Positions 13,219 through 18,913 of a stretch of DNA of 32,653 bases are shown here, piece after piece. How positions within the stretch are numbered: position 1 is the stretch's first letter; each line of letters begins with the position of its first letter. This stretch comes from a virus (taxonomy: Duplodnaviria; Heunggongvirae; Uroviricota; Caudoviricetes): the IMG/VR virus record IMGVR_UViG_2541047739_000007; one strand, 5' to 3'. The notes under the pieces are model-generated. The model had not been told where the DNA came from and made no database searches. It saw only the letters and a program-made list of their open reading frames with translations. The position numbers and the translations under genes were made by a program.

Positions 13219-14301
13219 TTAGAACTGATAAACCAGACCTACAGCGACGATGTCGTCGGTATCAATACCAGCTGTTTTGGTAAACTTACTATCGTCAATT
13301 AAGTTGATTTTGTAATCAACAAAAGTGGACATGTTTTTATTAAAGTAGTAAGTAGCACCGACATCGACATACTTGACTAAGTCTCGGTCACCATGAACAC
13401 CAAGGTCTTTACCTTTTGACTGAAGGTAAGCAACAGATGGACGCAGACCGAAGTCAAACTGATATTGTGCTACTGCTTCAAAGTTTTGTGCTTTGTTTGC
13501 AATATGGTTATTACCAAAAACGGTCATATTCTGAGTTTCAGAATATGTGGTAGCCAGATAGATATTGTTCGCATCATATTTCAGGCCTGCAGCCCATACT
13601 TCCGCATTTTTGCCGGAGGCATTGAATTTGCTCTTACCATAGGCGACCTGACCGTCAGTGCGATCTGATTTAGCATAGGTTGCACCCACGCCGAATCCTT
13701 CATACTCATAAGTAGTGGAGAAACCGAAACCATCACCATTGGCTTCAGTTACGTCAGTGCGGTCATTTTTACCCTGATACTGAGCAGCAAAGTTCAGGCC
13801 ATCGACCAGACCAAAGAAGTCGTTGTTACGATAAGTTGCAACACCAGTAGTGCGACCAGTCATGAACACATCTGTTTGGGTCCAGGTATCACCACCGAAT
13901 TCTGGCAGGACGTCAGTCCACGCACCGATGTCGTATGCTACACCGTAGTTACGGCCGTAATCGATTGAGCCGTAATCACCAAATTTCAGGCCTGCAAATG
14001 CAAGACGGGTTTTGTCTTTGGAAGAACCTTGAGATTCAGCACGGTTGCCTTTGAATTCATATTCCCACTGACCGAAACCAGTCAGTTGATCGTTGATTTG
14101 GGTTTCACCTTTGAAGCCAAGACGGGCATAAGTAGTATCACCATCATCTGCATCATTAGAGGAGAAGTAGTGCTTGGCATTAACTTTCCCGTATAGATCC
14201 AGCTTGTTACTGTCTTTATTATAAATTTCAGCTGCCTGAGCAGACATCGCCATCAGTACTGATGCAGCTACAGCAGAAATTGCCACTGTTAATTTTTTCA
14301 T
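13219..14301 (-). CDS. nmpC: OmpC/OmpF-family outer-membrane porin (prophage-borne NmpC/Lc type)
   Basis: 360 aa; signal peptide [23 protein letters not shown]; porin C-terminus ...VGLVYQF; on the opposite strand between Q and the lysis genes. Confidence 0.9.
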
Positions 14302-14728
14302 TGTACGCCCTTTTTTTTGAACTATTATTAAAAAATGATGTCACTGCGCGATAAATATTCATCTAATCAATGCGATTATTTCAAGATGTAAGTTTTAGTT
14401 TCTCATTTAATTTGTGAAGTAGATCTCTATTTTTATCTAAACCTTTTCTATCTAATCCTATTCATGGCTCTTGTTTGAACGAAAATAAATCTATTAGCTA
14501 ATTTATATTAATGGCACTTATTTATAAGCGATCTATAATTCTTTAGCTTAATTTAAACAAGCTAAAAATAACATCGGAAATTATTCATTGGTTATTTGTT
14601 GAAGTTTTCTTATGTATTTGTGGTGGTGTTTTGAACACTCGGTGGCATTCTCACAAATATCATTTAGTAGTTTACGTACGTAAAAAATTGGTTATGCTGT
14701 TAAGAGTGGTTACTTCGTCACACAGCTT

Positions 14729-16238: not shown

Positions 16239-16736
16239 ATGAAATCATTAACCCTCTTCAATCAACCAATTCGTATCGGTGAAGATGGCATGATCTGCCT
16301 CACTGATATGTGGAAAGCCAGTGGTAAAAGTGAATCTGAATCGCCTTACCACTACCTGCGAAACAAGCAGACCAAAGAGTTCTTAGCCGAGCTGGAGAAA
16401 AACCACGAATCTGTGGTTTTTACTGAGCGCGGTGTACACGGTGGAACATATGGCGGGAAGTTTGTTGCTTACGATTATGCGGCTTGGTTAAACCCCGGGT
16501 TCAAGTACGCGGCCTATAAAGTCCTCGATGACTACTTCACCGGAGAACTTCAGCATCGCAACAGCTTAAGTGCGCAGCTCAACATGAAATGTCATGAGTT
16601 TGACCAGAAGAAAGACATGGCGAGCTTCTGCGGACAAGGGCTGGCAGCATGGCGCTATACGAAGCCAGTGTTGGTCGCTGAGATTAACTCCCTGGCTAAC
16701 CAGCTGCAGATTACGATCCCCGGGCTTCCGGGATGA
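16239..16736 (+). CDS. KilA-N domain protein
   Basis: 165 aa; ...DGMICLTDMWKASGKSESESPYHYLRNKQTKEFLAELEK... matches the KilA-N pattern. Confidence 0.6.
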   Translation: MKSLTLFNQPIRIGEDGMICLTDMWKASGKSESESPYHYLRNKQTKEFLAELEKNHESVVFTERGVHGGTYGGKFVAYDYAAWLNPGFKYAAYKVLDDYFTGELQHRNSLSAQLNMKCHEFDQKKDMASFCGQGLAAWRYTKPVLVAEINSLANQLQITIPGLPG

Positions 16737-16990
16737 GTGATCGTGTTATTGAATGCGCCTCCAGAGCGGGGCGCGACTTCTCAGAGTTTATGAAAGGCGA
16801 GAAGGGCATGATGGAAGCATTGGCCTCGGTGGATGAGTTTGGCGAGCAGCTGCGCCTCAACGGCTGTGTCAATCATCACTTTGTTAGCTACATGATGCGG
16901 AACTCGATCATGCAGGCATTCATGGACATGGCAAAAGCCGAGAGGAAAGAAGAGCGCCGGCGTAAGCGAGCGGAAGCAAAAGCGAAGTAG
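16733..16990 (+). CDS. Hypothetical small protein with lysine/arginine-rich C-terminus
   Basis: 85-aa ORF overlapping the stop of the upstream gene (ATGA). Confidence 0.45.
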   Translation: MSDRVIECASRAGRDFSEFMKGEKGMMEALASVDEFGEQLRLNGCVNHHFVSYMMRNSIMQAFMDMAKAERKEERRRKRAEAKAK

Positions 16991-17475
16991 CCATTACAAA
17001 GCCTATCTACGGGTGGGCTTGATAATGGCTTATACCCTACACGGGATAACTTAACTGATATCCCTTTTAAAGGATAAAGGTATTCAAGCCTGACACATCA
17101 TGCGCTGTATCGTCGCCGTGTTCCCGTATTAACAGAGACCGTAGCCCGACGGGGAACTCCTTCTGCGCGAGTGTGCGGGAATAATCAAAAACGATGCACA
17201 CCGGGGTTACCGGGTACACATATTTCATCATGCCAGCGAGTCCGGTTCTGGCACGGAAGAAACCGGACGTTATGATTTAGTGCGGAAATATTTGTGTAGT
17301 GTTCTGAATGTTCTCAGTAAAGAGTAATGAATTATCAAAGGTATAGTAATACCTTTTGTTTTCGTGGATATTTGTAATCCATCTGAAAACCCCTGCTGTA
17401 GCAAGATTTTTCCTGTATTCGTAAAATGATAACTCTCCTGATTTGAATCCTTTTAAGGTGGCTTCTATAAGGCAT

Positions 17476-17688
17476 TTATTTTTTTGAAAATCTTACATTT
17501 ACAACCTTACCCTGTCCTTTTATTAAAACCGTATTATCGTTTTCAAGAACAAGATGAATATTCTCTGTGGCTAAATAGTAAATGTAATGTGAGACATTGT
17601 GACGTTTTAGTTCAGAATAAAACCAGTGATAGTTTAAATTATTTCGCACTTTATCGAATATTTGTTTAAAAATGGCAACCTGAGCCAT
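17476..17688 (-). CDS. Hypothetical small protein (70 aa) in AT-rich DNA, downstream partner of the RHH gene
   Basis: Start [14 protein letters not shown] with GGAAGG SD; compositionally distinct from its surroundings. Confidence 0.4.
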
Positions 17689-17745
17689 TGTAGTACCTTC
17701 CATGTGATATGAGGGGGCGTAGTCTGCACGATTATCTAGATTGCT

Positions 17746-17979
17746 TCAATCTGGTCTAACCTGTTTTCTGAGCAATTCAGTAATGTCACTCTTTTCTTTG
17801 TTTGCTTCAGGCGAAACTCTTTTTTCTGAGCACAGTCTCCGGCGGCAGGCTTCAATGACCCAGGCTGAGAAATTCCCGGACCCTTTTTGAACAAGAGCGA
17901 TGTTAATTTGTTCAATCATTTGGTTAGGAAAGCGGATGTTGCGGGTTGTTGTTCTGCGGGTTCTGTTCTTCGTTGACAT
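17746..17979 (-). CDS. Ribbon-helix-helix (Arc/MetJ/CopG-like) DNA-binding protein
   Basis: RNIRFPNQMIEQINIALVQKGSGNFSAWVIEACRRRL fits the RHH beta-strand plus two-helix pattern. Confidence 0.5.
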   Translation of the reverse strand: MSTKNRTRRTTTRNIRFPNQMIEQINIALVQKGSGNFSAWVIEACRRRLCSEKRVSPEANKEKSDITELLRKQVRPD

Positions 17980-18177
17980 GAGGTTGCCCTGTATTCAGTG
18001 TCGCTGATTTGTATTGTCTGAAGTTGTTTTTACGTTAAGTTGATGCAGATCAATTAATACGATACCTGCGTCATAATTGATTATTTGACGTGGTTTGATG
18101 GCGTAGACGCACGTTGTGATATGTAGATGATAATCATTATCACTTTACGGGTCCTTTCCGGTGATCCGACAGGTTAC

Positions 18178-18189
18178 GGGGCGGCGACC
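18178..18189. other. cosN, the 12-nt lambda cohesive-end sequence GGGCGGCGACCT (cos region roughly 18120-18370)
   Basis: Flanking sequence matches the lambda right end (...CGACAGGTTACG) and left end (CTCGCGGGTTTTCGCTATTTATGAAAATTTTCCGG...). Confidence 0.9.
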
Positions 18190-18367
18190 TCGCGGGTTTT
18201 CGCTATTTATGAAAATTTTCCGGTTTAAGGCGTTTCCGTTCTTCTTCGTCGTAACTTAATGTTTTTATTTAAAATACCCCCTGAAAAGAAAGGAAACGAC
18301 AGGTGCTGAAAGCGAGCTTTTTGGCCTCTGTCGTTTCCTTTCTCTGTTTTTGTCCGTGGAATGAGCA

Positions 18368-18887
18368 ATGGAAGTCAACAAAAAGCAGCTGGCTGACATT
18401 TTCGGTGCGAGTATCCGTACCATTCAGAACTGGCAGGAACAGGGAATGCCCGTTCTGCGAGGCGGTGGCAAGGGTAATGAGGTGCTTTATGACTCTGCCG
18501 CCGTCATAAAATGGTATGCCGAAAGGGATGCTGAAATTGAGAACGAAAAGCTGCGCCGGGAGGTTGAAGAACTGCGGCAGGCCAGCGAGGCAGATCTCCA
18601 GCCAGGGACTATTGAGTACGAACGCCACCGACTTACGCGTGCGCAGGCCGACGCACAGGAACTGAAGAATGCCAGAGACTCCGCTGAAGTGGTGGAAACC
18701 GCATTCTGTACTTTCGTGTTGTCGCGGATCGCAGGTGAAATTGCCAGTATTCTCGACGGGATCCCCCTGTCGGTGCAGCGGCGTTTTCCGGAACTGGAAA
18801 ACCGACATGTTGATTTCCTGAAACGGGATATCATCAAAGCCATGAACAAAGCAGCCGCGCTGGATGAACTGATACCGGGGTTGCTGA

Positions 18888-18913
<26 letters not shown>
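18368..18913 (+). CDS. nu1: Terminase small subunit
   Basis: MEVNKKQLADIFGASIRTIQNWQEQGMPVLRGGGKGNEV... recognised as lambda Nu1. Confidence 0.95.

Follow-up and report, generated by a model that had tools for sequence, protein, structure and literature searches.

The closest described relatives of the locus analysed here lie in phage lambda and in the lambdoid prophages of Escherichia coli K-12. In the cryptic prophage Qin, ynfO (b4533) and ydfO (b1549) are read in the same direction across a 57-nt spacer, divergent from the Nu1 homologue nohA. The DLP12 genes ylcI, ybcW, and ybcV show a layout equivalent to that of lambda; in lambda and in DLP12-type prophages, about 650 bp with the opposite-strand gene ybcW lie between the two members of the pair. 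Lambda itself carries an unnamed 64-aa ylcI-like ORF (48109-48303, complement) and a DUF1398 ORF (47042 to about 47452, complement). The structure of K-12 YdfO is available as an NMR model (PDB 2HH8). The small DNA-binding proteins compared with YnfO were the ribbon-helix-helix (RHH) repressors of the Arc/Mnt/CopG type and the RHH antitoxins RelB, ParD, FitA, KacA, and TacA.

Published data connect the second gene to host regulation. Genomic SELEX with PdhR recovered a site in the K-12 ynfO>ydfO region, and the mRNA levels of ybcV and ybcW decreased about 10-fold in a pdhR mutant (PMC7660256). Exposure to ionic liquid induced K-12 ydfO 117-fold (PMC4077768). A protective effect of YdfO overexpression against oxidative stress, stated in the latter report, was rejected as a mis-citation of Wang et al. 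2010, a study that concerns YfdK, YfdO, and YfdS of prophage CPS-53 and makes no mention of ydfO (PMC3105296). Literature searches found no functional study of the YnfO or YdfO family.

The window, that is, the whole 32,653-nt stretch of the tailed-phage record IMGVR_UViG_2541047739_000007, contains a pair of this kind (Table 1). On sequence comparison, the locus is the ynfO-ydfO (ylcI-ybcV) pair of the conserved lambda and lambdoid right end, and thus already known, ordinary phage DNA. The explanation that best covers the whole locus, and which is considered probable, is a lambdoid right-end regulator gene next to a host-regulated accessory gene that has become a pseudogene here. The initial annotation had suggested a comparison with the lambda right end, and this comparison recovered conserved lambda DNA in which both genes are present. 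Lambda and its close relatives align at about 88-90% nucleotide identity, in two pieces that cover 84-95% of the 1.1-kb query. The lambda 64-aa ORF shares 52 of its first 55 residues with the window protein (94.5%), whereas its C-terminal tail is shorter and different. About 560 bp of additional lambda sequence, including ybcW on the opposite strand, is absent from the window, and the lambda DUF1398 ORF is intact, unlike that of the window. The region from cosN to the ynfO start codon is 98% identical in both. Qin resembles the window in gene order, strand relation, spacer length, divergence from a nu1-type gene, and a PdhR-box-like sequence at the 3' end of ynfO. The two differ in that ydfO is frameshifted in the window, with a run of seven A (A7) and a product of 70 aa, and in that Qin is a cryptic remnant, whereas the window, which has terminase and head genes, looks like a complete lambdoid phage.

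Table 1. Features of the ynfO-ydfO locus and its cos-proximal surroundings (coordinates of the window)
Feature	Coordinates	Strand	Description	Basis
ynfO-like gene	17746..17979	-	77 aa; TGA stop 17746-17748	Pfam/NCBIfam profiles; identity to K-12 YnfO
ydfO-like DUF1398 pseudogene	17277..17688	-	412 nt; intact alleles 411 nt, 136 aa	
Truncated frame, DUF1398 N-terminal half	17476..17688	-	70 aa (75 aa from ATG 17703)	PF07166; phrog_35494
ORF starting at ATG 17703	17476-17703	-	75 aa	
DUF1398 C-terminal half	17277..17489	-	+1 frame relative to truncated ORF	PF07166; tblastn
A7 homopolymer, frameshift site	17479..17485	-	intact alleles A6	alignment
Candidate ydfO promoter and overlapping PdhR-box-like site	17731..17765	-		promoter scan; pattern match
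Non-coding stretch, ynfO start to cosN	17980..18178		ynfO promoter/operator presumed here	
cosN core GGGCGGCGACCT	18179..18190	+		exact match
nu1	18368-18913			Nu1 vs PF07471, 334.7 bits

Even closer relatives are found in phage PhiR49_1 (PV340568) and in prophages of strains ST3 and SCU-172, which are 99.4-99.5% identical to the window over 1101 nt and share its neighborhood (porin, lysis genes, KilA-N gene, 85-aa ORF, ydfO, ynfO, cos, and nu1). The region, and with it these lambda ORFs, is very widespread: matches were obtained in 4642 of the 5426 complete E. coli genomes, with a median of two copies, and the two gene families occupy the right end of lambda and of the majority of lambdoid prophages in E. 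coli. Escherichia and Shigella loci with enough flanking sequence display the order nu1, cos, ynfO, (ybcW), ydfO, and this order holds even where Nu1 is only 37% identical. The exception is locus L036, where ybcW and ydfO lie beside a different small terminase gene and ynfO is missing. The arrangement divergent from nu1 across cos is common to the window, K-12 Qin, lambda, and all ynfO-bearing Escherichia loci with enough flank. A DUF1398 paralogue, K-12 ycgX, lies beside bluR and has no YnfO partner.

The initial annotation had proposed profile and structure searches with both proteins; these assigned the first to DUF3950 and the second to DUF1398, with 2HH8 as structural match. By its profile matches, the 77-aa product is a member of the YlcI/YnfO family (DUF3950). 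It scores 72.8 bits against PF13132 (cutoff 25) in the Pfam profile search, 35.2 against NCBIfam NF041551 (cutoff 30), and E 6e-33 against phrog_949, and it is 97.4% identical to YnfO of K-12 Qin. PGAP labels the protein in close genomes as 'YlcI/YnfO family protein'. Both the FPN and the (S)AWV motifs are present (...NIRFPNQMIEQ...NFSAWVIEAC...), and in an alignment of 30 family members F17, I25, V41, and C45 are nearly invariant. The family is narrow, with only 108 cluster representatives among 1.84 billion proteins. In 2 of the 30 sampled members (P0299 and P0332), DUF3950 is fused to the helix-turn-helix (HTH) of a Terminase_2 small subunit, the latter recognized at E 1.6e-11. The 6.8-kb contig that encodes P0299 (L006, 4714-5103) also carries integrase and primase genes and looks like a phage satellite. 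As a separate observation, ynfO and ydfO share a reading frame, with one TGA and 14 sense codons between them (17704-17748, minus strand). A 233-aa YnfO-YdfO 'fusion' with 761 member sequences (P0134) arises where some metagenome-pipeline gene callers read through this stop, and it is probably an artefact of calling TGA as Trp.

The protein had been described at first as a 77-aa RHH regulator. The ORF and its length stand, now with a DUF3950 assignment, and an RHH fold is plausible. YnfO is probably an RHH-type DNA binder. The AlphaFold2 model consists of an extended basic N-terminus followed by helices at residues 19-32 and 37-55 (pLDDT 86-89). Residues 13-18, N-I-R-F-P, fall within the extended segment, and a weak hhalign match (E 0.044) places this motif and helix A in register with N-L-R-W-P and helix A of Arc. 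Foldseek returned no match for the model, and none of the 30 YlcI/YnfO members matched a Pfam RHH family.

The second gene had been presented as a 70-aa ORF with a good Shine-Dalgarno sequence (SD), located 42 nt behind the first gene. The ORF and its SD are confirmed: GGAAGG lies 7 nt upstream of the ATG at 17688, the start that PGAP also uses in close genomes. The gap to this start amounts to 57 nt, since 42 nt results only when counting to an in-frame ATG that lies at 17703 and lacks an SD. Furthermore, the ORF constitutes only the N-terminal half of a gene with a frameshift. Of the 119 positions of the PF07166 profile, it covers 1-62 (Pfam DUF1398; E 1.3e-19, 70.9 bits, cutoff 22), and the half in the +1 frame matches positions 62-119 (E 6e-19, 68.7 bits, cutoff 22). 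The whole domain is therefore matched, although split across two frames. In tblastn, residues 72-141 of protein P0121 align with the +1-frame half at 98.6% identity, and this half ends at a stop codon at 17277-17279. An intact frame of about 136 aa is absent from the window because a TAA (17476-17478), directly after the A7 run, stops translation after 70 aa. The truncated ORF has a full-length match to the 75-aa family phrog_35494. A comparison of the two halves of DUF1398, N-terminal against C-terminal, revealed no sequence similarity and hence no sign of an internal duplication.

The junction explains this split. In the alignment, the window and SCU-172 carry A7 where ST3 carries A6, and the homopolymer is the sole difference there. 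Because the change from A6 to A7 shifts the frame after codon 68, the second gene is, judged from its alignments, a ydfO/ybcV-family DUF1398 pseudogene in this window with a 70-aa N-terminal fragment as its remaining frame. Deletion of a single A recreates a 136-aa product with 75.6% identity to K-12 YdfO and 76% to the lambda ORF; its match to 2HH8 has an E value of 3e-67. In strain SCU-172, the identical allele bears the PGAP label 'DUF1398 domain-containing protein, frameshifted'. The gene is intact, with A6, in PhiR49_1 and ST3 (136 aa in ST3). Allele frequencies were estimated with a 71-nt query centered on A7 in about 1057 complete E. coli genomes that carry this ydfO variant. Exact matches to A7 occurred in two genomes (SCU-172 and MSB1_4I) and exact matches to A6 in 814. 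Since both A7 genomes also rank first in their overall match to the 1.1-kb region, the allele looks like a single mutation inherited within a small lineage of phages; repeated switching or separate sequencing errors appear less likely. For this one record taken by itself, a sequencing error at A7 may still account for the extra base.

The extra base has also been weighed as a functional frameshift, in which slippage or phase variation at the A-run would yield both the 70-aa and the full-length product. The shift falls in a homopolymer with a stop codon right behind it, the 75-aa truncated form is frequent enough that PHROGs has a separate family for it, and A7 is found in three independent records. 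The genome counts nevertheless place the only exact A7 alleles (2 of about 1057, against 814 with A6) in the closest relatives of the window, a pattern that speaks for one inherited mutation and not for recurrent switching. The -1 frame reaches a stop after a few codons, and a full-length product would need a +1 shift of AAA onto AAU, for which pairing would be poor. A programmed function of the A-run is thus highly improbable.

The surroundings agree with the first description of the locus in two respects. The AT-rich patch reported there is real, with a GC content of 0.31 over 17300-17700 as compared with about 0.5 on either side, and the placement between lysis cassette and cos likewise holds. 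The lysis genes lie to the left, followed by a KilA-N gene (16239-16736), an 85-aa ORF, ydfO, and ynfO. Given the position of the cosN core, about 200 nt to the right of ynfO, the gene pair sits just left of cos. Both genes are antisense to the late operon and are read leftward from beside cos. Separate control of ydfO is suggested by a promoter-like site recovered in the promoter scan, TAGACC-16-GATAAT (17758-17731), which spans the last ynfO codons and the spacer. The PdhR-box-like sequence AACAGGTTAGACCAGAT (17749-17765, minus strand) lies in the last ynfO codons and overlaps the -35 element of this candidate promoter. It is an exact pattern match where none is expected by chance, and it equals the K-12 ynfO>ydfO SELEX site except for three spacer bases.

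On the other side of ynfO, the stretch that reaches to cosN contains an inverted repeat (18049-18061 and 18069-18081), a candidate operator for YnfO. The promoter scan found no promoter scoring at least 9/12 in this stretch. Its identity to lambda and other Escherichia loci is 91-98%. The idea that it is more conserved than the genes was dropped, as the genes themselves reach 89-99%; the apparent divergence of locus L044 is due to frameshifts. A Fur-box-like palindrome, GTAGATGATAATCATTATC (18123-18141), agrees with the consensus GATAATGATAATCATTATC at 16 of 19 positions, with 0 such matches expected by chance, and it is largely kept in lambda and the other aligned Escherichia loci. The sequence GGGTCCT (18149-18155), taken here to be cosQ, begins 8 nt to its right. 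The palindrome may link the expression of ynfO or of the late genes and nu1 to iron, or it may be merely a palindrome associated with cos. Literature on Fur and nohA contained nothing bearing on this site.

These features can be assembled into a working model of the conserved right end. YnfO would be a dimeric, Arc/Mnt-like RHH binder that regulates the leftward unit beside cos, most likely through its own promoter. The AT-rich ydfO would be an accessory gene of the moron type with its own promoter in the 3' end of ynfO and the spacer. Its control would lie with host factors, as the PdhR box and the strong stress induction in K-12 suggest, and it may be expressed mainly in the lysogen, like bor. 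In the phage of this window, the role of ydfO would be lost or cut down to whatever the half-protein can do.

Other readings of the pair were compared with this model. The initial annotation had pointed to type II toxin-antitoxin and small defence modules. In such a type II or abortive-infection pair, YnfO would serve as RHH antitoxin or autorepressor, YdfO as a new toxin, and the frameshift would mark a decayed toxin gene. The claim is not sustained, as the proteins lack a toxin-family or PADLOC match and the pair is not an obligate operon; the accompanying remark that the second protein was not recognized as a known toxin family is borne out, since it matches DUF1398 and none of the toxin families in the Pfam search. 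Among the PADLOC-DB v2 models, neither protein matches below E 0.01: YnfO and the 75-aa ORF had no match, and for intact YdfO the sole match was Csx23 (E 0.023). The two genes do not form an obligate operon, since the opposite-strand ybcW splits them in lambda and DLP12-type prophages. In addition, ydfO comes with a promoter-like site and a PdhR box of its own, it is separately regulated in K-12, and DUF1398 genes occur without a YnfO partner in K-12 ycgX and in L036. A YnfO with 97% identity is found next to YdfO variants with identities of 74-99%; a near-constant first protein beside a variable second one thus gives no sign of co-variation. The production of K-12 YdfO in quantity for NMR (2HH8) suggests that strong toxicity is unlikely, and the frameshift is rare, with 2 genomes against 814. 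Taken together, a toxin-antitoxin or abortive-infection pair is very improbable. A functional prophage module in which DUF1398 is an unrecognized effector that YnfO, as an RHH protein, regulates or neutralizes, whether toxin-antitoxin-like, abortive-infection-like, or acting in superinfection exclusion, is likewise held to be distinctly improbable. If it were true, lambda itself and about 85% of E. coli genomes would possess such a module, with the A7 allele as a natural loss-of-function variant.

The location beside cos also invites a role in packaging, with YnfO binding next to cosQ and cosN and modulating the terminase or cos cleavage, for example by silencing the cos site of the prophage. 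Terminase and IHF, acting with cosQ, cosN, and cosB, explain lambda cos function, and we know of no role of the ynfO and ydfO ORFs in it. In favor of such a role, the ynfO start always lies about 200 nt from cosN, whatever the type of Nu1, and two family members fuse DUF3950 to the Terminase_2 HTH, one of them in the satellite-like contig with integrase and primase. YlcI/YnfO proteins are further listed in capsid-forming phage-inducible chromosomal islands (PICIs) from Enterobacter (PMC13612085). The PICI packaging redirector Rpp is, however, an unrelated winged-HTH protein and not an RHH protein (PMC6739421), and the lead of YnfO as an Rpp-like redirector was rejected for this reason. The ynfO gene is oriented away from cos, and the terminase fusions are rare (2/30 sampled). 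A packaging function of YnfO consequently appears very unlikely. Annotation labels offer yet another reading, in which DUF1398 would be a virion structural protein. The phrog_413 label is 'head and packaging: head protein', and phage records, some of them of lambda, name the gene 'head protein' or 'putative envelope protein'. These labels are propagated annotations and not experiments. The gene runs antisense to the late operon and is retained in cryptic prophages that have lost their head genes (Qin) as well as beside bluR (ycgX), and neither a signal peptide nor a membrane segment is visible in the YdfO sequence. To our knowledge, the set of lambda virion proteins is well defined and does not include the DUF1398 protein. 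A structural role is hence extremely improbable, and the regulator-plus-accessory-gene model of the right end remains the preferred one.

Several observations concern the surroundings of the pair and the search results. Between Rz and ydfO, positions 16239-16990 (plus strand) encode a 165-aa protein with KilA-N and ORF11CD3 domains and an overlapping 85-aa ORF (phrog_875), which together occupy the place of lambda bor. The KilA-N protein has a partial PADLOC match to the candidate system PDC-S22 (E 1.2e-8, 31 residues). Matches outside Escherichia consist mostly of lambda DNA on contigs of about 3.5 kb or 48.4 kb (L015-L043), located in assemblies of Pseudomonas, Kitasatospora, Cohnella, Flavobacterium, Pedobacter, and other genera, as is explained by control or spike-in contamination. 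Since the genome-contig matches are mostly of this kind, they are uninformative on how the genes are distributed beyond Escherichia and Shigella. Among the results of the protein searches, many 3.5-kb ENA contigs full of errors likewise derive from lambda. Farther to the left, between the Q region and the lysis genes, an OmpC/NmpC-type porin gene (13219-14301, minus strand) is followed by a very AT-rich patch (14300-14700, GC 0.25-0.28), and porins are a known type of lambdoid cargo.
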